Origin: Methanobacteriota archaeon | Lineage (GTDB): Archaea; Thermoplasmatota; Poseidoniia; Poseidoniales; Poseidoniaceae | Direction of reading: 5' to 3' | Assembly: GCA_018650165.1 (NCBI GenBank) | Contig: JABIGM010000050.1 | Span: 32,001-96,000 of the forward strand | DNA length: 64,000 nt | Part shown: piece after piece, positions 22,426 through 38,714 of the stretch | Numbering within the stretch: the stretch's first letter is position 1 | Layout of the letters: every line of letters starts with the position of its first letter | Position numbers and translations under genes: made by a program | Notes under the pieces: model-generated | Database searches by the model: none | What the model saw: the letters and a program-made list of their open reading frames with translations, nothing else | What the model was told of the DNA's origin: nothing

Positions 22426-23370
22426 TCACTCCTCACATGCTCTTTTGACAAGTATTTTGATCATATTTCTTCGATACCTTGGCGGTAAAGCAGTATTGTT
22501 AACCGGTTTCGTTGAATCGTAGATTGCATTACAAATTGCTTTAACATCGCCATTAGAGATTGCTACTTCCTCATCATGTCTGCGAGGAATACTTTCCAAA
22601 GCAGTTGTTGCAACTCTTAGTGTACTTCTGTCACCCTTCTTCCATGCGGCTGCTGCGCCAGCTTCTGGAAAATCCCATGACTCTCTAACTCGTAACTTGC
22701 GATAGGCTCCAATCCAGTCCTCTACATCATCGGGTAGAGTTACTTTCAGCATAAATTCACCAGGCTGCAGAATATTTCGCGTCATTCCATCTAGTTGATA
22801 GAACTCATTTACCAATACATTTCGAGGGCCATTTGGGCCAATCAGATGTGCTGTAGCATTCAAAACCATCAACGTTGGAGCGATATCTCCTTGGTAAGTA
22901 GCGACACACAACTCATTTTGGTTAGGAATCACTCGGCAATCAGAGCCTGTTCCACAATCACACTTGTGGCACCAATCAATACTACTTCGCCACTCTTCTG
23001 TTTGATTATACCAGAAACATCGAGTATCCAAGCAAAGATTTCCGCCAAGAGTGGCGTTTCTTCGAATTAGCGAGGAAGCCACTTTACTAGCGGCTTCCGC
23101 TACAAGTGGGTGAGCATTGCCACCTTCTGCGAGGTCATGTAATCGTGCCATACAGCCTATTTCGGTCAGAGAAATAGAATCGATTCCTGCGATTTTTGCG
23201 AGTGAAATCACATGAGGTTTAGTATTAATGTGCCATTTGTAATTTGGAATTAAATCGGTGCCTCCTGCGACCCAATCAAATTCTTCACCTGCTTCTAACA
23301 GTCCAGCGGCTATTACACAGGCATCTTCCACAGATTGAGGATGGTGTAATTCAAACGGTGGCATCAGCAT
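22426..23370 (-). CDS. hcrB: Mo-hydroxylase FAD subunit with [4Fe-4S] insert, 4-hydroxybenzoyl-CoA reductase beta-like
   Basis: FELHHPQSVEDA, VAGGTDLIP, RRNATLGGNLCLDTRCFWYNQTEEWR...C...C...C, YQGDIAPTL, AYRKLRVRESWDFP, YRRNMI. Confidence 0.8.
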   Translation of the reverse strand: MLMPPFELHHPQSVEDACVIAAGLLEAGEEFDWVAGGTDLIPNYKWHINTKPHVISLAKIAGIDSISLTEIGCMARLHDLAEGGNAHPLVAEAASKVASSLIRRNATLGGNLCLDTRCFWYNQTEEWRSSIDWCHKCDCGTGSDCRVIPNQNELCVATYQGDIAPTLMVLNATAHLIGPNGPRNVLVNEFYQLDGMTRNILQPGEFMLKVTLPDDVEDWIGAYRKLRVRESWDFPEAGAAAAWKKGDRSTLRVATTALESIPRRHDEEVAISNGDVKAICNAIYDSTKPVNNTALPPRYRRNMIKILVKRACEE

Positions 23371-26171
23371 TACTTACCATCCTCCATTTTTCTTTGCTCG
23401 ATTTTAGTCCAAGCACTACCTGCAAGGCCAAGCCCCTCTAATTGTTCAGAGGTAGGCCTCACTGCGATTTTCCAATCTCCATCTTGGTCCTCGGGGGGAA
23501 CGGTTGGGTCAAATCCAAATAATACTCCATTGATGTAAGGGTCGGTATCTTCTGAACGCTGACGGCGACTATCTCTTCCTCCGTGTTGTGAAGAACGCTG
23601 AACAATTTTTTGCTGTAACTCAGAGAAATCTAAACGTGGCGTAGGTAGGTCTTGGGCCTCAGCAATGTCTTCTCTCTTCATTTTCTTTGCAATTGCTGCC
23701 CAAACCTTGTCTGGTGTCAAAGGTAAATCATTGATTCTGATTCCAATTGCATCGTAAACTGCATTTACCACTGCAGGGAGAATTGGTAGAAGTGGGCCTT
23801 CTCCTGCTTCTTTAGCCCCGAATGGCCCTTCTGGGTCACATGATTCAATTATTATTGGAGTTACATTTGGCATTTCGTGAACACTTGGGATCTTGTAATC
23901 AAGTAAATTTGGATTCTGTAGATGACCGGTTCTCCCATACACCATTTGTTCTGAAAGCACCTGACCCAGACCCATATGGCAAGAACCGATGATTTGCCCT
24001 TCTACTGCGAGTGGATTCAGTGCTTTACCACAATCATGAGCGGCCCAAACATCTGTACATTTGATGAGTCCTGTTTCAACATCAACATCAACTTCGGCAA
24101 CATAGGCTGAAAACGAATATGCAGGAGCAAGGCCCGCTGCTGCACCTTTGTGAACTCCTCCCATCGGCGGTGTTCTGTACGCACCACTAGCAATTAGCGC
24201 ACCTTTGTCCTCTTGTGATTTATGCAATGCCTCGAGATAAGAAACTCCAATCGCGGGGTCTCTTTTACTGTAAATTCTCCTGTCGTTCAGTATCAAATAT
24301 TCCGCCGGCATATCCAATATGCCACTCGCCGCATCCACCAATTGCTCACGAATTTCGAGTGCTGCACTGATGGCAGCATTCGCATTCATGAATGTGACTC
24401 GAGATGAATATGAGCCTAAATCAACTGGACTAGTATCGCTTTCATGGGAGCGAACATGTATCATTTCCAATGGGAGTGCTAACACTTCTGCAACCACTTG
24501 GGCTATAGCAGTAGTAGACCCTTGTCCAATATCTGCAGCACCGGTATGAACTGTAACGCCTCCATCCATATCAATCTGGATATGTACGGTCGCATGAGGG
24601 AATTTATTTGGATCCCAATGAATAGGAAGTCCAGACCCTGATATGAAGAAACCACATCCGATTCCGATTCCCTTTCCTAAAGGTAATTTCCTGAACTTAG
24701 AATCCCACTGGCTACCTTCGCGCACTCGCTCTAATGCTTGCCGCATACCATTCGATGTAATTCTGAATCCAGTAATTGTTTTTGAATGTGGAGGTAATAA
24801 ATTTGCTAACCGTAAATCGATAGGATCTACTTGTAATTTTTCAGCCAAATCATCCATACCTACTTCGATTGCACATCTAGTGTTCACAGCACCATGGCCG
24901 CGCATTGCTCCACTAGCCGGTTTGTTTGTCCAAACACGAGCACCGGTATAATGGAAGGAACCTAACTCGTATGGAGCGGTTGCTAAAACACCATTGTAGT
25001 AAGAAGTGACGTGGCCAAAAGACGCAAATCCGCCTCCGTCAATCAAAGCATCAATCTCAAATCCGGAAATTCTCGCATCCTCATCTGCAAACATTTGTAC
25101 TTCGATGTGAGAGGGATGGCGTCCACGATTTACCCAAAAGACCTCTTCTCTGTCAAAAGTAATTCTAACTGGGCGCCCCGCTTTTCTGGCTAAAATCGCC
25201 GCACACATTTCATGCGGGAAAGGATCTGACTTTCCACCAAATCCACCGCCAACAAATGTTCGTATCACGTTGACCTGGTGCATTGGGACATCTAGAACAG
25301 TCGCTAGAGCTCTGTGTGCATAGTGCGGTACTTGCTGGGGGGTGTACAGTTGTAGACGCCCGTTTGAATCCCAATGAGCAACAACAGCATGGGGTTCGGT
25401 GAAGCCATGATTGACACCCATGAATTTCCATTTGCCATGGTGTGTTGCTCTGGCTTGTTCTAATTTGGAACGGTCACCAAACTCTTGGAAAACTCTTTTT
25501 TGAACATTGGTGGAGCCAATGTGATATTGCCCGCGCCAATGGATTGGATCATCAACGTCCAATAATCCCTTTTTGGGGTCATGAACCGCATCTAGAACTT
25601 CATATTCCACTTCGATTAATGCCGCCGCTTCACGAGCAGTTGGTTCGTCAATTGCAGCAACACAAGCCACAAGGTCCCCTACATGCCTGACTTTTTCAAC
25701 AGCCATTGCGTGTTCATCTTTTGTCACCGGTAGTACACCAAAGCGCTGCGGTGCATCAGCACCTGTAGACACCGCTAAAACGCCCGGTAGTGCTTCGGCT
25801 TTGGAAGTATCAATACTCTTAACCTTAGCATAATGATGAGGTGAACGAACAATTCTTCCAATTATTTCATTTGGCAATCGCACATCATCACCATACCATG
25901 CCTGGCCCGTAACTTTGGCATTACCATCAACTAAAGGAGTTCTTTTTCCAACAGATGTTCCAGTCCTGTATTTATCATGAAGATGTTGACCTGCCGGCTG
26001 TGATTCATTTCCGCCTTCAACTTCTGGGATGAAATCCATGTCTCTATCGGCCATTTCGGGCCTTGAACCACCTGAACCGGGAGGATTAAATTTAATTTTA
26101 CCTGCAACACGCTTTCCATCAACACGAACATCAGTGTTGCTTCCAGGTTGTTGAACATAGCCATCAGTCAT
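23370..26171 (-). CDS. hcrA: Mo-hydroxylase molybdopterin subunit, 4-hydroxybenzoyl-CoA reductase alpha-like, with N- and C-terminal extensions
   Basis: VGKRTPLVDGNAKVTG, QQVPHY, FVGGGFGGK, GAMRGHG, HATVHIQIDMDGGVTVHTGAADIGQGS, GSYSSRVTFM, DCGKALNPLAVEGQ, GPFGAKEAGEG; GAGGTG SD. Confidence 0.78.
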   Translation of the reverse strand: MTDGYVQQPGSNTDVRVDGKRVAGKIKFNPPGSGGSRPEMADRDMDFIPEVEGGNESQPAGQHLHDKYRTGTSVGKRTPLVDGNAKVTGQAWYGDDVRLPNEIIGRIVRSPHHYAKVKSIDTSKAEALPGVLAVSTGADAPQRFGVLPVTKDEHAMAVEKVRHVGDLVACVAAIDEPTAREAAALIEVEYEVLDAVHDPKKGLLDVDDPIHWRGQYHIGSTNVQKRVFQEFGDRSKLEQARATHHGKWKFMGVNHGFTEPHAVVAHWDSNGRLQLYTPQQVPHYAHRALATVLDVPMHQVNVIRTFVGGGFGGKSDPFPHEMCAAILARKAGRPVRITFDREEVFWVNRGRHPSHIEVQMFADEDARISGFEIDALIDGGGFASFGHVTSYYNGVLATAPYELGSFHYTGARVWTNKPASGAMRGHGAVNTRCAIEVGMDDLAEKLQVDPIDLRLANLLPPHSKTITGFRITSNGMRQALERVREGSQWDSKFRKLPLGKGIGIGCGFFISGSGLPIHWDPNKFPHATVHIQIDMDGGVTVHTGAADIGQGSTTAIAQVVAEVLALPLEMIHVRSHESDTSPVDLGSYSSRVTFMNANAAISAALEIREQLVDAASGILDMPAEYLILNDRRIYSKRDPAIGVSYLEALHKSQEDKGALIASGAYRTPPMGGVHKGAAAGLAPAYSFSAYVAEVDVDVETGLIKCTDVWAAHDCGKALNPLAVEGQIIGSCHMGLGQVLSEQMVYGRTGHLQNPNLLDYKIPSVHEMPNVTPIIIESCDPEGPFGAKEAGEGPLLPILPAVVNAVYDAIGIRINDLPLTPDKVWAAIAKKMKREDIAEAQDLPTPRLDFSELQQKIVQRSSQHGGRDSRRQRSEDTDPYINGVLFGFDPTVPPEDQDGDWKIAVRPTSEQLEGLGLAGSAWTKIEQRKMEDGK

Positions 26172-26188
26172 TGTAACACCTCATTTGA

Positions 26189-26761
26189 CTAATTTGGACC
26201 TGAAGGATGGGGGTCAGAGTGGGCTGAACTCGCAGGCTTTGCCGGTGAAGCATCTCCTCTATGGATCTCAGCCGCTGCTTGGATTGATTGAATTATTTGC
26301 TGATATCCTGTACAGCGACAAAGATTACCTTCGATAGCAGTTGATATCTCTGCATCGGTAGGATTAGGATTCTTATCGAGCAGTGCTTGAGAGGAAATTA
26401 AGAAACCAGGCGTACAAAAGCCACATTGGGAACCTCCATGCTCTGCAAAACATTGCTGAATCGGTGCGAGGTGAGCGCCATCAGCAAGCCCTTCAACTGT
26501 CGTGATTGTGCTGCCTTGTACATCTTGAGCCATGGTAAGGCAAGATAAACGTGGTTGGCCATCTACCATCACTGCGCAGCAACCACATGTCCCCATGTCA
26601 CAACCGCGCTTCACTCCGAGGCATCCAACTTTATCTCTAAGGACATCTAGTAAGACTGCATTAGAAGGGGCTAACACCTCTTGAGGTTGCCCATTAACCT
26701 CTGAGTTCCAAACTTTAGTATGTGCCGCTGGAATCATAGAAACATGCTCATCACCTACCAT
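26189..26761 (-). CDS. hcrC: Mo-hydroxylase 2x[2Fe-2S] subunit (HcrC/CoxS-like)
   Basis: GVKRGCDMGTCGCCAVMVDG...SCL; GSQCGFCTPG; GNLCRCTGY. Start uncertain (26761 or 26737). Confidence 0.85.
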   Translation of the reverse strand: MVGDEHVSMIPAAHTKVWNSEVNGQPQEVLAPSNAVLLDVLRDKVGCLGVKRGCDMGTCGCCAVMVDGQPRLSCLTMAQDVQGSTITTVEGLADGAHLAPIQQCFAEHGGSQCGFCTPGFLISSQALLDKNPNPTDAEISTAIEGNLCRCTGYQQIIQSIQAAAEIHRGDASPAKPASSAHSDPHPSGPN

Positions 26762-26856
26762 CTGAGACACCAACAACCCATGGGAAGTCGAATCACCCTT
26801 TCAGCGTTGGCACGATTGGATAATAATTTGAGATGATGAAAAACAATAGTTCTAGA

Positions 26857-35695: not shown

Positions 35696-36229
35696 ATGGC
35701 GGGAGAAATGGTTTGGATTGATCTCGAAATGACGGGATTAAATCTTGATAGTGAATCTATTATTGAAATTGCCACAATTGTCACTGATGGTGAATTGAAT
35801 ATTACTGCCATGGGCCCAAATCTGGCAATCAAAGTAAGCGAAGAGTTGCTGGGAAATATGGATGAGTGGAACACAACTCATCACACAGCCTCTGGACTTG
35901 TTGATAGAATAAGGAGCGAAGGTGTTAGTTTAGAAGAAGCGATTAAGCAAACTTGTGCCTTTCTAAAAGAAAATATAGATACAGGTGCTTCTCCACTCTG
36001 TGGCAATTCAATTCATACTGATAGAGCATTTTTGGCAAAAGAAATGCCTGAAATTCTAGACCTGTTACACTATCGTATTGTCGATGTATCTTCAATCAAA
36101 GAGTTATCCAATAGATGGTATCCAAATAATCCAAGATATGACAAAAAAGAAGCACACCGTGCTTTGGATGATATTATCGAATCTATCGAAGAACTTCGCC
36201 ACTACAGGGCTACTTTATTCAGAGATTAA
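35696..36229 (+). CDS. orn: Oligoribonuclease (DEDDh)
   Basis: WIDLEMTGL, IIEIATIVTD, WNTTHHTASGL, PLCGNSIHTDRAFL, HYRIVDVSSIKEL, HRALDDIIESIEELRHY. Confidence 0.95.
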   Translation: MAGEMVWIDLEMTGLNLDSESIIEIATIVTDGELNITAMGPNLAIKVSEELLGNMDEWNTTHHTASGLVDRIRSEGVSLEEAIKQTCAFLKENIDTGASPLCGNSIHTDRAFLAKEMPEILDLLHYRIVDVSSIKELSNRWYPNNPRYDKKEAHRALDDIIESIEELRHYRATLFRD

Positions 36230-37022
36230 TTCCTTTGAACCCGGCAATAATTTCTGCGATTACTGCAATTGCAATCTCTTCGGGGCTCTCTGCCCCAATC
36301 TCAAGTCCAATTGGGCAGTTCACCCGGTCTAACCTCTCTTGAGTAATCCCTGCATCGAGAGCGACTTCAGAGAAAGTTTTCCATTTTGATTTTGAGCCTA
36401 TTACTCCTAATCTCCCCGAATAACCTGCAAATAGTAAGCCGAGTAATCTTTCTTCATCTTCTTTCCAGTCGTGACCTAGAAGCAAAATATCACTAAATCT
36501 AGCCAAGGAATCGGTGTTTTCAGCCATCAAGAAATCTTTGGGACAGGAGTGATGTGACTCTTTAGCTCCTTCAATCGTGGCAAATTCCGCTCTCGAATCC
36601 TGAACTGAGAAACTCCAATTCAAAGGACCACATGCTTCTGCAATCGCCTTAGCACAATGACCTCCTCCCATCAGTAGAATATGTGGCATCGGCATCAGGA
36701 TCTCCATTGCAACGGTAACGTGGCCGCCACATAAACTATCCAGAGGTGTTACCTCATAGCCCTTGGCTCCTTTATTCAATCCAAATGTCACGACCTTACC
36801 GCATGGCTTGATGGCATTTTCCAGCATCTCTCTAAGTTGTGATATCACTTTCAGTTCAAGTCCAGCACCGCCAACGGTACCTACTATGCCATGATTATTC
36901 AATGCTAATTTAGCACCTTCTTTTCCGGGTACTGAACCTGTAGTTGAAATCACAGTTGCAATTGCAACCCCTCGATTTTTGGAAAGTTCATCAAGAGACC
37001 AGTGCAAAATAGATGCCGTCAT
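36219..37022 (-). CDS. xdhC: XdhC/CoxF-family Moco sulfuration/insertion chaperone
   Basis: ATVISTTGSVP, GTVGGAGLE, CGGHVTV, LMGGGH, LGVIGSKSK, PIGLEIGAESPEEIAIAVIAEI. Confidence 0.92.
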   Translation of the reverse strand: MTASILHWSLDELSKNRGVAIATVISTTGSVPGKEGAKLALNNHGIVGTVGGAGLELKVISQLREMLENAIKPCGKVVTFGLNKGAKGYEVTPLDSLCGGHVTVAMEILMPMPHILLMGGGHCAKAIAEACGPLNWSFSVQDSRAEFATIEGAKESHHSCPKDFLMAENTDSLARFSDILLLGHDWKEDEERLLGLLFAGYSGRLGVIGSKSKWKTFSEVALDAGITQERLDRVNCPIGLEIGAESPEEIAIAVIAEIIAGFKGINL

Positions 37023-37561
37023 TGCAATGCCTCCAAATCGGCGGGAGTGTCTATGTTCATATGCACGCCGGGAGCAGAAATCCTAGTGATTTCTAATTGT
37101 TCACGTAATGAAGACTCTTTACTGAGGGCAAGGACCTTATCAATTTCACACAGTAAAAGTGGATGGCCACTTGGGTCTGGAGATGCATTAGAATGGTTCT
37201 CCAATAATGCGGGAATAGTTTCTTTATTCCAACCACATCTATCAACCGGAGAAATCAAAACGCGCCGAGGAGTTCTGCCTAATTCGCTCAGAAGTGAAAG
37301 TAATCCGACCTGTAAGGTGCCTGTCCTGCCATCTTCAGGATTTGGATTTACAACAATTGTTGCATCTTTGCATGAGAGCATCACATCGATTTGTAATTCA
37401 GAGCGAGTTACAACGATAATAGGTTTGCAACCACTCTCCTGAAGGAGACGTACTGCCCTGCCAACCAAGGTTTCACCATTCCATTCGACCAATGCTTTAG
37501 GTTGTCCCAATCGAGATGACGACCCCGCAGCCAGAACAATGGCTGGTACACACTTGGCCAT
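37019..37561 (-). CDS. mocA: Molybdenum cofactor cytidylyltransferase-like NTP transferase
   Basis: IVLAAGSSSRLGQPKAL, VVNPNPEDG, GHPLL, NIDTPADL; 4-bp overlap with xdhC. Confidence 0.8.
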   Translation of the reverse strand: MAKCVPAIVLAAGSSSRLGQPKALVEWNGETLVGRAVRLLQESGCKPIIVVTRSELQIDVMLSCKDATIVVNPNPEDGRTGTLQVGLLSLLSELGRTPRRVLISPVDRCGWNKETIPALLENHSNASPDPSGHPLLLCEIDKVLALSKESSLREQLEITRISAPGVHMNIDTPADLEALQ

Positions 37562-37565
37562 TAGA

Positions 37566-38714
37566 TCACAGGTCCTTGGTAATCTCACGCCCAATTATCA
37601 TACGTTGGACCTGACTGCTTCCTTCATAGATTTGCATTACTTTAGCACCACGCATTAAACGAGCCACTGGGTACTCTTCAGAATAACCATATCCACCATA
37701 GACCTGTACTGCATCTGTAGTAACTTCCATGGCAGTATCTGCTGCAAAGCGCTTCGCATGGGCTGCGGATTCAGTATTACTGATTCCCGCATCTGATTCT
37801 GAGGCTGATTTCCAGGTTAACATCCTTGATGCTTCAATCTTAGTCTTCATATCCGCAAGCATGAATTGAATTGCTTGGTGTCGATGTAGAGGTTTGCCAA
37901 ACGTTTGGCGTTCTCCTGAATATTGTAATGCGTGTTCGTAAGCAGCACGAGCTAGTCCTGTTGCATGAGCTGCAATGTTTGGCCGACTCATGTCGAATGC
38001 CTTCATCGCATTCATCCACCCACCTGATTCTGAAGCACCACACAGGTTTTCAACTGGAATCCTCATGTCATCGAATGACATAGAACGGGTATCAGAACAC
38101 CTTTGGCCCATATTATTCTCTTTCTTTCCTAGAGAAAGACCAGGGGTGTTAGCATCGACAATGAAACCAGACATCCCACGATATCCCGCATTGGGGTCGG
38201 TCTTTGCCAAAACGAAAAACCAATCTGCTTTTCCGGCACCTGTGATCCACATTTTTGAACCGTTGATGACATATTCATCACCATCTTTTACTGCCAGAGT
38301 TTTACAAGCAGCCACGTCTGAACCCGCACCTGGTTCGGTAACTGCATAGGATGCGAGAGCACCTTCTTCAGCAACCATTCGCAAGTATTTGTCCTTCTGT
38401 TCATGAGTTGCCCCTGTAATCAGTGGAGCACATGCTAGACTAGTGGCATATGCCGCTGTTGCAAAACCGGGGTCACCCCATGCTAATTCTTCATTGACAA
38501 GCACTTCTTCCATTGAACCAAGTCCAGGTCCACCATACTCTTCAGAAATATGTAAGTTTAGTAATCCCATTTCATTTGCAGATTTTATTGCATCTTTCGG
38601 GTATTCCGAATTCAAGTCCCAGTGTTCTGCATTTGGTCTGATTTCATCCAAGGCAAACTCTCTTGCTAGTTCTTGGAGCATCGTCTGCATTTCATCTAAT
38701 TGAAAGTCGACCAT
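37566..38714 (-). CDS. Acyl-CoA dehydrogenase
   Basis: YAVTEPGAGSDV, INGSKMWIT, GQRCSDT, RQTFGKPL, AVQVYGGYGY, QIYEGSSQVQR. Confidence 0.95.
   Translation of the reverse strand: MVDFQLDEMQTMLQELAREFALDEIRPNAEHWDLNSEYPKDAIKSANEMGLLNLHISEEYGGPGLGSMEEVLVNEELAWGDPGFATAAYATSLACAPLITGATHEQKDKYLRMVAEEGALASYAVTEPGAGSDVAACKTLAVKDGDEYVINGSKMWITGAGKADWFFVLAKTDPNAGYRGMSGFIVDANTPGLSLGKKENNMGQRCSDTRSMSFDDMRIPVENLCGASESGGWMNAMKAFDMSRPNIAAHATGLARAAYEHALQYSGERQTFGKPLHRHQAIQFMLADMKTKIEASRMLTWKSASESDAGISNTESAAHAKRFAADTAMEVTTDAVQVYGGYGYSEEYPVARLMRGAKVMQIYEGSSQVQRMIIGREITKDL

Follow-up and report, generated by a model that had tools for sequence, protein, structure and literature searches.

The window considered here, 64,000 nucleotides of one contig from a Poseidoniaceae (MGIIa) MAG, encodes a three-subunit molybdenum enzyme together with an XdhC-family chaperone, a MocA-like cytidylyltransferase and an acyl-CoA dehydrogenase (Table 1). 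A preliminary description had reported a small-large-FAD gene order with translational coupling, and this is borne out by strand, coordinates and junction sequences: the TAG of the small-subunit gene is separated from the large-subunit ATG by 17 nt containing GAGGTG, and the large and FAD subunit genes overlap by 1 nt in TAATG. The small-subunit boundary given earlier, 26761, is the first in-frame ATG and the likely start, although the ORF itself runs to 26776.

Table 1. Features of the enzyme locus and the associated genes, in window coordinates
Feature	Position	Strand	Basis
Small subunit, 2x[2Fe-2S], HcrC-like	26189-26776	-	Pfam Fer2_2 1e-32, Fer2, Fer2_3
Large molybdopterin (MCD) subunit, HcrA-like, 933 aa	23370-26171	-	Pfam Ald_Xan_dh_C, MoCoBD_1, MoCoBD_2
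N-terminal extension of large subunit, MGII-specific, residues 1-72	25956-26171	-	Not matched by non-MGII orthologues or HcrA
C-terminal extension of large subunit, MGII-specific, residues 830-933	23373-23684	-	Beyond end of HcrA/TIGR03194 match
FAD subunit, HcrB-like, 314 aa	22426-23370	-	Pfam FAD_binding_5
[4Fe-4S]-type loop insert of FAD subunit, residues 111-155, 7 Cys	22906-23040	-	Alignment to 1rm6_B
XdhC-family Moco insertion chaperone, ~10 kb off	36219-37022	-	Pfam XdhC_C, XdhC_CoxI
MocA-like cytidylyltransferase (makes MCD form of Moco), overlaps XdhC	37019-37594	-	Pfam NTP_transf_3 4.5e-22
Acyl-CoA dehydrogenase, end overlaps MocA-like start	37566-38714	-	Pfam Acyl-CoA_dh_N, _M, _1

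All of the large-subunit motifs cited earlier are present, GAMRGHG at position 421, IHWDPNKFPHATV at 517, TGAADIGQGS at 543, GSYSSRVTFM at 586 and AKEAGEG at 786. AMRGHG is a less exclusive mark of HcrA than had been proposed, since AMRGxG also occurs in E. coli XdhA (GAMRGYG) and its His is shared across the entire Hcr-like superclade, members other than HcrA included. Each subunit matches the models for 4-HBCR (4-hydroxybenzoyl-CoA reductase) best, but all fall under the NCBIfam equivalog cut-offs: the large subunit scores 800.5 bits against TIGR03194 (cut-off 994.55; next family XdhA, 524), the small subunit 187.7 bits against TIGR03193, the gamma-subunit model (cut-off 257.8), and the FAD subunit, in an end-to-end alignment, 219.5 bits against TIGR03195 (cut-off 404.55). 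By comparison, the HcrA reference in our trees (P0141) reaches 1301 bits to TIGR03194 and 1017 bits to 1rm6_A. Among solved chains, the large subunit matches 1rm6_A at 623 bits, followed by CoxL at 272, and the FAD subunit matches 1rm6_B at 158.9 bits, followed by PaoB at 76.9. An AF2 model of the large subunit (pLDDT 84.7) retrieves 1rm6 as the top Foldseek hit, with TM 0.97, rmsd 1.6 Å and 42-43% identity.

The closest known system is HcrCAB of Thauera aromatica (PDB 1RM6/1SB3), to whose equivalog the R. palustris HbaBCD type also belongs; it has the same gene order and domains, is the best match for each subunit, and shares GAMRGHG, TGAADIGQGS and GSYSSRVTFM, along with the motif of the catalytic Glu. 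The HcrA-specific states GGGFG[AH]RT, RGRP[WE] and QVPYY are missing from the MGII large subunit in a motif comparison and are replaced by GGGFGGKS, RGRHP and QVPHY. The MGII protein is also longer than HcrA, by ~72 N-terminal and ~104 C-terminal residues. The N-terminal extension is predicted to be disordered in the monomer (pLDDT <50 at residues 1-43 and 55-62), and MGIIa and MGIIb have in common its motifs GY.QQP, PGSGG and IPE..GG..QP.G.H.HD. The motifs of the C-terminal extension are likewise kept across both groups, and it is predicted to be ordered, with a helix at residues 852-872 and block pLDDT values mostly of 68-96.

The Cys-rich insert in the FAD subunit was correctly recognized in the preliminary description, and its Cys118, 134, 145 and 155 align with Cys122, 138, 146 and 155 of Thauera HcrB (1rm6_B). 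These four Cys are kept in all orthologues examined from MGII and other Thermoplasmatota, and a sequence comparison found no four-Cys loop in E. coli XdhB, the sole XDH-type FAD subunit compared, or in the L029 and L030 FAD subunits. The loop has been named as the distinguishing feature of the beta subunit of 4-HBCR (PMC11760930), and the alignment predicts that the MGII protein keeps an HcrB-type [4Fe-4S] site. MGII loops carry in addition a 3-residue Cys-bearing insert, K[CA]DC, relative to HcrB.

Phylogeny places the enzyme in the Hcr lineage. In our trees, the MGII sequences are sister to a group that we call subclade B (support 99), bona fide HcrA branches off next (support 85-88) and is the nearest characterized lineage, and the resulting Hcr-like superclade (support 97-99) leaves out E. 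coli XdhA and PaoC. Together with the four-Cys loop and the 1.6 Å fit to 1RM6, this agrees with the original proposal of an HcrCAB-type enzyme rather than an XDH, CoxL or aldehyde oxidoreductase. The enzyme is no peculiarity of the source organism: 149 of the 151 Poseidoniales genomes carry one copy of it, orthologues occur elsewhere in Thermoplasmatota, and it is a core gene of the order, the ocean-surface Marine Group II (MGII) archaea, vertically inherited within Thermoplasmatota.

Subclade B (Bacteroidota, Oligoflexia and other MAGs) provides a link to benzoyl-CoA metabolism. Its Hcr-like enzymes are encoded in clusters that also hold class I benzoyl-CoA reductase (BCR), Had, Oah and Dch, where the neighboring Oah scores 564 against a cut-off of 464, Had 438 against 339, and Dch near its cut-off. 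All 5 subclade-B genomes tested have BcrA/D ATPase genes in tandem, just upstream on the same contig in 2 of them. Genes for MocA, XdhC and the FAD subunit adjoin, all members fall under the TIGR03194 cut-off, and the Bacteroidota enzymes have their small and large subunits joined in one fused protein (~930 aa). Gene context, the only guide to the function of these enzymes, would place them in anaerobic benzoyl-CoA degradation. They lack the MGII terminal extensions and sit in a complete pathway cluster that is mostly missing from MGII, but their motif blocks have the same state as those of MGII at all compared, and not the derived states of HcrA, except for an MGII-specific change of GQIEGS to GQIIGSC. 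They are 49-54% identical to P0126, the closest relative outside MGII, a range similar to that of MGII.

A few MGII genomes have such clusters as well, which makes the tie to benzoyl-CoA metabolism stronger than was evident at the outset. An MGII version of a class I reductase subunit (545 bits to MbdN, chain 9g87_B) occurs in 6 of 201 Poseidoniales genomes, and both of the reductase-bearing genomes examined carry the whole reductase-Dch-Had-Oah cluster. Comparison of the two MGII families gives 71-74% identity for the reductase subunit and ~70% for the Hcr-like subunit, similar values that fit old inheritance followed by later loss. The source genome has no detectable BcrAD, HGD-D, AFOR, Dch, Oah, Had or tyrosine phenol-lyase, nor an aryl-CoA ligase, its sole AMP-forming ligase being FadD-like. 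Across 41 Poseidoniales genomes, none reached the benzoate-CoA ligase cut-off and 11 gave no match at all.

We tentatively favor, at somewhat less than an even chance, a ferredoxin-linked Hcr-lineage enzyme that reductively dehydroxylates a phenolic acyl-CoA and is a remnant of an ancestral benzoyl-CoA pathway. It would combine an MCD-molybdenum subunit with one that holds two [2Fe-2S] clusters and with a FAD subunit that has an extra [4Fe-4S] cluster in the inserted loop. Electrons from reduced ferredoxin would enter at this loop and pass from FAD through the two [2Fe-2S] clusters to Mo, the site proposed for the reductive dehydroxylation of a phenolic acyl-CoA resembling 4-hydroxybenzoyl-CoA. 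The absence of ferredoxin noted earlier holds within the window, but a genome search found small 2x[4Fe-4S]-type ORFs elsewhere. The ferredoxin could be reduced, for example, by a POR-type 2-oxoacid:ferredoxin oxidoreductase whose gene lies on this contig, 15 kb outside the window. The cofactor side of this proposal is supported by the linkage of MocA-like and XdhC genes to the enzyme genes: in MGIIb, Bacteroidota and other Thermoplasmatota, the small-subunit gene has the XdhC gene immediately upstream, and in relatives the MocA-like gene keeps synteny with XdhC and with the enzyme genes. The MocA-like protein scores 60 bits, under cut-off, against matur_MocA_YgfJ.

The ancestral pathway would still be complete in a few MGII genomes and lost in most, including the source genome. 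The dehydroxylation product would then enter another route, for which the only candidate seen is a BoxB-like diiron protein present order-wide, or the enzyme may have a different substrate. No sign emerged of the tie to Trp catabolism that had been proposed from TDO in the window. Weighing against the favored reading are the scores under cut-off, the missing HcrA-specific states, the pathway and ligase genes missing from the source genome, and the retention of the enzyme in ~99% of genomes, compared with ~3% for the reductase, which argues for a role independent of the reductase pathway. The Thauera reductase is oxygen-sensitive. Its MGII relative resides in a planktonic archaeon of an order that respires oxygen (Rinke et al., PMC6461757). 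An Hcr-type enzyme in oxygen-respiring cells mostly lacking the rest of the anaerobic pathway could represent an undescribed metabolic system, and its substrate is a testable question.

The reductive direction is not unique to HcrABC, since the Enterocloster urolithin C 9-dehydroxylase UcdCFO, compared here by description, is a xanthine-oxidase-family enzyme that uses an MCD cofactor and dehydroxylates a phenol reductively (PMC11760930). In that system, UcdC is without the [4Fe-4S] loop and NAD(P)H has been proposed as donor (PMC11760930). The substrate is not a CoA ester.

The direction of electron flow is not readable from sequence, because a similar loop occurs in PaoB of E. coli, a subunit of an enzyme that oxidizes its substrate. 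It is conceivable, if on balance unlikely, that the Hcr scaffold was repurposed in MGII to hydroxylate or oxidize some aromatic, heteroaromatic or acyl-CoA substrate, with ferredoxin or another acceptor receiving the electrons by way of FAD and the [4Fe-4S] loop. Universal conservation in an order that respires oxygen, and in which the reductase pathway is almost wholly lost, would fit such a change, as would the MGII-specific extensions, extra loop Cys and GQIIGSC; the catalytic Glu of AKEAGEG is retained, and, as PaoABC demonstrates, an oxidizing enzyme can have the loop. Weighing against this are an active site that, apart from GQIIGSC, has the motif blocks of the BCR-linked subclade B, a reductase as the closest characterized relative, and the failure to find any candidate substrate pathway.

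Quite improbable is an aldehyde oxidoreductase linked to ferredoxin and akin to PaoABC or to archaeal glyceraldehyde oxidoreductase, serving aldehyde detoxification or sugar-acid metabolism. [quoted passage not shown] Among the other solved FAD subunits, PaoB alone has a Cys loop in this position, although the loop sequence is different. The best NCBIfam match of XdhC is the AOR-related maturation factor XdhC_rel_AOR, followed by xanthine_xdhC, both under cut-off, and NCBI names some orthologues 'aldehyde oxidase'. The large subunit, however, scores only 217 bits against PaoC, 164 against glyceraldehyde oxidoreductase (4zoh_A) and 328 against the NCBIfam glyceraldehyde dehydrogenase alpha model, compared with 623-800 for HcrA; PaoC is the farthest sequence in the trees, and the structural match is much poorer (rmsd 3.1-3.9 Å, compared with 1.6 Å). 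PaoABC is periplasmic and has a Tat signal; no Tat-like N-terminus is visible in the translated MGII enzyme.

About as improbable is a xanthine/hypoxanthine dehydrogenase, as Damashek et al. 2021 suggested for purine use by the MGIIb 'xdhC, yagS' genes, citing high pbuG permease transcription tied to putative xdh genes (PMC9723583): the XdhC chaperone and the second-best, XdhA-type NCBIfam matches are consistent with it, but E. coli XdhABC and B. subtilis PucCDE-type enzymes, for all their shared domains, have the gene order large-FAD-small and lie outside the Hcr-like superclade, XdhB is loopless, and uricase (PF01014) and HIU hydrolase (PF00576) were found neither in 41 Poseidoniales genomes (39 of high quality) nor in the source genome. 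The active site also differs, with the Ser of GGGFGGKS and the His of GAMRGHG at what we take to be the positions of Glu802 and Phe914 in bovine XDH.

The acyl-CoA dehydrogenase encoded beside the MocA-like gene is possibly a functional partner of the enzyme. Its best NCBIfam matches, AcrC acryloyl-CoA reductase (388 bits) and cyclohexane-1-carbonyl-CoA dehydrogenase (359 bits), are both under cut-off, and homologues recur close to the enzyme genes in bacteria, in MGIIb and in two further lineages of Thermoplasmatota.

The hcrCAB-like genes of the window encode a Mo/FeS/FAD enzyme of the MCD type that belongs to the lineage of Hcr, the reductase of 4-hydroxybenzoyl-CoA (4-HBCR), carries the cysteine set of the beta-subunit loop, is core to the Poseidoniales (Marine Group II, MGII, with the families MGIIa and MGIIb), and has its closest clades tied to benzoyl-CoA metabolism. 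The Pfam domain set of a Mo-hydroxylase is complete, with each domain above its own cut-off, and the catalytic glutamate motif of the large subunit, AKEAGEG, aligns with AKEASEG of HcrA. Together with the XdhC and MocA maturation genes, these features place the enzyme in the xanthine oxidase/Mo-hydroxylase family. The small gene ends in TAG and is followed by 17 nt including GAGGTG before the large gene starts, while the stop of the large gene and the start of the FAD gene share one base (TAATG); the gene order, coupling and motifs reported in the preliminary description were borne out, every motif lying where it had been placed.

Features of the Hcr-like system and related loci (positions are those of the window unless a genome and contig are named)
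Feature	Position	Strand	Remarks
Secreted or anchored protein, 318 aa	21495-22451	minus	no Pfam match; begins few bases past the FAD-gene stop
FAD subunit, 314 aa	22426-23370	minus	Pfam FAD_binding_5
Molybdopterin subunit, 933 aa	23370-26171	minus	Pfam Ald_Xan_dh_C, MoCoBD_1, MoCoBD_2
MGII-only C-terminal extension of Mo subunit, ~104 residues	23373-23684	minus	motifs common to both MGII families; mostly predicted ordered
MGII-only N-terminal extension of Mo subunit, ~72 residues	25956-26171	minus	motifs common to both MGII families; predicted disordered
Small subunit, two [2Fe-2S] clusters, 195 aa	26189-26776, first ATG 26761	minus	Pfam Fer2, Fer2_2
XdhC	36219-37022	minus	~10 kb from enzyme genes; overlaps MocA-like gene
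MocA-like cytidylyltransferase	37019-37594	minus	overlaps XdhC and acyl-CoA dehydrogenase genes
Acyl-CoA dehydrogenase	37566-38714	minus	overlaps MocA-like gene
BoxB-like locus L031	G000 (source genome):C7:6122-7285		outside window
BoxB-like loci L041-L046			in genomes G003, G027, G056
MGIIb class I cluster L139	G041:C5:28000-47900		outside window
MGIIb class I cluster L141	G037:C26:1-18889		outside window

None of the three subunits reaches the NCBIfam equivalog cut-off for 4-HBCR: alpha scores 800.5 bits against TIGR03194 (cut-off 994.55), beta 219.5 against TIGR03195 (404.55), and gamma 187.7 against TIGR03193 (257.8). The second-best NCBIfam model for alpha is of the XdhA type, at 524 bits. 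Among solved structures, the large subunit matches the alpha chain of Thauera aromatica HcrCAB (1rm6_A) at 623 bits, with chains of CoxL, quinoline oxidoreductase, PaoC and XDH at 272 bits or less, and the FAD subunit matches HcrB at 159 bits and PaoB at 77. Modelled with AlphaFold2 (pLDDT 84.7, pTM 0.88), the large subunit superposes on the alpha chain of 1RM6 with a target-normalised TM of 0.97 and an rmsd of 1.6 A, the runner-up fold being quinoline 2-oxidoreductase (TM 0.87, rmsd 3.3 A). A tblastn search of plasmids gave best matches of at most 36% identity, no named HcrA among them.

The source genome is a 1.75-Mb MAG (completeness 80%), and homologues at 70-95% identity carry the names Candidatus Poseidoniaceae, Thalassarchaeaceae or Poseidoniales. 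Searching the order with TIGR03194 recovered a single copy in 149 of 151 sampled genomes, covering every one of the 22 genera and all 58 high-quality genomes. Scores of full-length matches run from 748 to 835 bits, and in none of the 151 genomes is the cut-off exceeded. Orthologues also occur in several other Thermoplasmatota families, at 49-59% identity. Single copies across the order together with these orthologues indicate a core, vertically inherited gene set rather than a peculiarity of one organism. In a HMMER scan of 1.8 billion representatives, the nearest non-MGII cluster stands at 55% identity. The bona fide HcrA cluster (P0141; 1301 bits to TIGR03194, 1017 bits to 1rm6_A) shares 40% identity with the large subunit of the window, and the remaining near clusters scanned fall, like MGII, below the TIGR03194 cut-off (613-960 bits).

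The preliminary description had set as its refuting test whether the large subunit would branch with xanthine dehydrogenases or aldehyde oxidoreductases, away from HcrA, and the trees came out on the side of HcrA. Both a FastTree phylogeny of 89 rows and an IQ-TREE phylogeny of 36 rows (LG+C20, PMSF) recover an Hcr-like superclade with support of 97-99 and leave E. coli XdhA and PaoC outside it. Within the superclade, MGII, other Thermoplasmatota and bacterial sequences form one clade (support 99), which the long branch of HcrA adjoins with support of 85-88; by trees and structure-chain scores, the enzyme groups with HcrA and apart from the XDH, aldehyde oxidoreductase and CoxL types. When named genomes were scanned and placed in a tree, the 99-supported clade split into subclade A (MGII, Thermoplasmatota, Planctomycetota and KSB1) and subclade B (Bacteroidota, Oligoflexia and others). 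The HcrA-specific states GGGFG[AH]RT, RGRP[WE] and QVPYY, at motifs close to the active site, are all missing from MGII, which reads GGGFGGKS, RGRHP and QVPHY as do most superclade members other than HcrA. At the motif blocks compared, the HcrA states are derived and MGII has retained those of the majority. GAMRGHG is widespread and E. coli XdhA reads GAMRGYG, so GAMRGHG is not diagnostic. Between MGII and subclade B, the motif blocks compared have the same states save for GQIEGS, which becomes GQIIGSC. Five long ORFs in high-GC bacterial loci ("cluster 11"), on the strand opposite to the match, were taken as spurious antisense frames and ignored in the tree. Separately, five loci titled Chitinophagaceae, Chitinophaga, Verrucomicrobiales and Salinimicrobium (L084, L089, L090, L091 and L125) match P0126, the nearest non-MGII relative, with MGII-like extent and identity, and their contigs may stem from MGII and have been misassigned to MAGs of bacteria.

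The FAD subunit has an insert of 45 residues (111-155) with seven cysteines, of which Cys118, 134, 145 and 155 are in register with Cys122, 138, 146 and 155 of HcrB (1rm6_B). We take the latter four to be the ligands of a [4Fe-4S] cluster, and the cluster-ligand cysteines of HcrB were reportedly described by Unciuleac et al. in 2004. All four are kept in every MGII and other Thermoplasmatota orthologue examined; E. coli XdhB has no such loop, nor do the FAD subunits at L029 and L030, two loci on another branch of the superclade. The insert is thus a four-cysteine loop of the 4-HBCR type, and the [4Fe-4S]-binding loop is the feature that distinguishes the 4-HBCR beta subunit from a related dehydroxylase (PMC11760930). 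E. coli PaoB has a cysteine loop of different sequence at the same site. Conservation of the loop therefore favors a ferredoxin-type redox partner, yet, since PaoB also has such a loop, the direction of electron flow is not fixed by the loop alone. A 2-oxoacid:ferredoxin oxidoreductase is encoded on the same contig, 15 kb outside the window, and the genome has three ferredoxin-like small ORFs. We tentatively take ferredoxin to be the redox partner and the reductive dehydroxylation of a phenolic acyl-CoA to be the likeliest chemistry, at somewhat short of even confidence.

The genomic surroundings of subclade B, the sister bacterial enzymes, bear on this reading. Flanking genes there encode Oah, the 6-oxocyclohex-1-ene-1-carbonyl-CoA hydrolase (TIGR03200, 564 bits, cut-off 464), Had, the 6-hydroxycyclohex-1-ene-1-carbonyl-CoA dehydrogenase (TIGR03201, 438 bits, cut-off 339), and a dienoyl-CoA hydratase, Dch, near its cut-off (239 versus 292 bits). 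Genes for an acyl-CoA dehydrogenase, a thiolase, an SDR and a FadB-like protein lie there as well. Tandem BcrA/D-type ATPase genes were found in all five subclade B genomes tested, on the same contig and immediately upstream in two of them. Clusters combining benzoyl-CoA reductase (BCR), Had, Oah and Dch with an Hcr-like enzyme occur at eight loci of Bacteroidota and other bacterial MAGs (L098, L101, L104, L107, L108, L114, L142 and L143). With these genes at its flanks, subclade B seems, despite its sub-cut-off score, to be the genuine 4-HBCR belonging to clusters of the class I benzoyl-CoA pathway. Because the enzymes in the BCR clusters also fall below the TIGR03194 cut-off (the subclade representative P0127 scores 785 bits), that cut-off may be too strict for alpha. 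True 4-HBCRs of Bacteroidota probably escape the TIGR03194-03195 cut-offs, and the equivalog model probably overlooks such enzymes outside Proteobacteria.

No comparable genome context was found for the window enzyme. The source genome, at 80% completeness, yielded no BcrAD, HGD-D, AFOR or BCR subunits; orthologues of the reductase, Oah, Had and tyrosine phenol-lyase genes of MGII were likewise not found, and its one AMP-forming ligase is FadD-like. The benzoyl-CoA pathway (aryl-CoA ligase, reductase and Dch/Had/Oah) was thus not recovered from this genome. Across the order, neither BcrAD nor an above-cut-off benzoate-CoA ligase was found in any of 41 genomes. Oah matches at E <= 1e-20 were found in two of 61 genomes (one above cut-off), and Had exceeds its cut-off in two of 61. 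The two MGIIb genomes with both Oah and Had hold a full class I aryl-CoA reductase cluster, comprising two BcrB/C-type and two BcrA/D-type subunits, Dch, Had, Oah, an SDR, a thiolase and a tyrosine-phenol-lyase-like gene (451 bits to 1c7g); one BcrB/C-type subunit matches MbdN of 3-methylbenzoyl-CoA reductase (chain 9g87_B) at 545 bits. The contig of one of the two clusters, 188 kb long, bears typical MGII core synteny as well, which speaks against an artefact of binning. Six of 201 Poseidoniales genomes, spanning four genera and both families, have an MbdN-like subunit, at 71-92% identity. Its divergence between the families is similar to that of the Hcr-like subunit (~70% identity), and we therefore read the MGII reductase as probably present ancestrally and widely lost; lateral spread of the genes within MGII is a possible alternative. 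A literature search returned no paper linking 4-HBCR, benzoyl-CoA reductase or a class I cluster to MGII, and reports of class I bcr genes are confined to Thermoplasmatota from sediment (PMC9239135).

A second candidate for ring chemistry is a BoxB-like diiron protein (Pfam PaaA_PaaC), found in 60 of 61 Poseidoniales genomes, which scores 170-236 bits against the benzoyl-CoA 2,3-epoxidase model (TIGR03225, cut-off 499). Conserved beside it are genes for an HTH_10 regulator, an uncharacterised 180-aa protein, a 3-hydroxyacyl-CoA dehydrogenase and, in MGIIa only, a DMT transporter; genes for an enoyl-CoA hydratase and an aldehyde dehydrogenase are close by. In G041, one of the two MGIIb genomes, the reductase cluster lies ~5 kb from this BoxB-like core cluster. 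BoxA and BoxC equivalogs were not recovered from Poseidoniales (63-82 bits only). The BoxB-like gene may be tied functionally to the Hcr-like enzyme; co-occurrence outside the order is loose (both in eight sampled genomes, BoxB-like only in 15, Hcr-like only in seven). If the two do act in sequence, Poseidoniales would treat phenolic acids by a hybrid route not described before, Hcr-type dehydroxylation followed by BoxB-like ring opening, a scheme that we consider improbable as a whole. Organic matter from algae and particles could supply the substrates, for example by way of tyrosine, phenol or 4-hydroxybenzoate. A reductase of the Hcr type, oxygen-tolerant or microoxic, would strip the para-hydroxyl from the aryl-CoA with ferredoxin as donor, and the resulting benzoyl-CoA would be opened by the BoxB-like enzyme with the adjoining hydratase, aldehyde dehydrogenase and hydroxyacyl-CoA dehydrogenase. 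Only a few lineages, possibly low-oxygen ones, would then retain the branch with the ATP-dependent class I reductase.

The main alternative is that the enzyme has been repurposed for an oxidative reaction. The gene is present in essentially all genomes and the reductase pathway in only ~3%, a disparity in favor of repurposing; we judge repurposing to be on the unlikely side. Xanthine dehydrogenase fares worse: at the positions that we take to correspond to bovine Glu802 and Phe914 of the purine site, the large subunit has Ser and His, E. coli XdhA lies outside the Hcr-like superclade, the loop is not in E. coli XdhB, and neither uricase nor HIU hydrolase was found in any of 41 Poseidoniales genomes. 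It is the sole published suggestion that we found for this enzyme, a putative assignment made in passing (PMC9723583). An aldehyde oxidoreductase is a poor fit by score, tree, structure and motif. CO dehydrogenase is dismissed by scores of 289-314 bits against CODH models with cut-offs of 950-991, and by a loop reading SGAMRGHG where form I CoxL has AYxCSFR.

The MGII neighbors of the enzyme genes, namely a DUF4350-MoxR-DUF58 block and the gene of a secreted protein, are conserved but uninformative. Both were considered as parts of the enzyme and rejected, since they are syntenic in MGII and absent beside the enzyme in all other lineages; we treat them as inherited neighbors. The 318-aa secreted or anchored protein itself is syntenic with the enzyme in all MGII loci examined and in no other lineage. 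In MGIIb, in other Thermoplasmatota and in bacteria, the genes directly upstream of the enzyme are XdhC and MocA. In the window they form an apparent operon with an acyl-CoA dehydrogenase, overlapping end to end (36219-38714). Homologues of this dehydrogenase recur close to the enzyme in other lineages and it has only generic NCBIfam matches, below cut-off, so that as a functional link it is suggestive and not diagnostic. A CoA-ester enzyme sharing a predicted operon with molybdenum-cofactor maturation genes is in itself unusual.

MGII are among the most abundant surface-ocean archaea and are still uncultured. If the Hcr-like enzyme acts on phenolic acyl-CoAs, then MGII would have a role in the turnover of aromatic dissolved organic matter through chemistry hitherto tied to anaerobes, and the few MGII genomes with the full class I cluster would speak for niches that are anaerobic or microoxic, for example particles and oxygen-minimum zones. 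Complete molybdenum-cofactor synthesis has been assigned to MGII core metabolism, and the client named in that context was a nitrate reductase in three MAGs only (Rinke et al., PMC6461757); the Hcr-like enzyme provides a core client for this cofactor. In the source genome, a sulfite-oxidase-family gene was not found, and the molybdoenzymes recovered are the Hcr-like enzyme, as the only xanthine-oxidase-family member, and one bis-MGD enzyme. The sole gene of the DMSO-reductase family (PF00384) in this genome (G000:C45:8082-9188, minus strand) lies in a 768-aa ORF and is, next to the Hcr-like enzyme, the only molybdoenzyme gene found.
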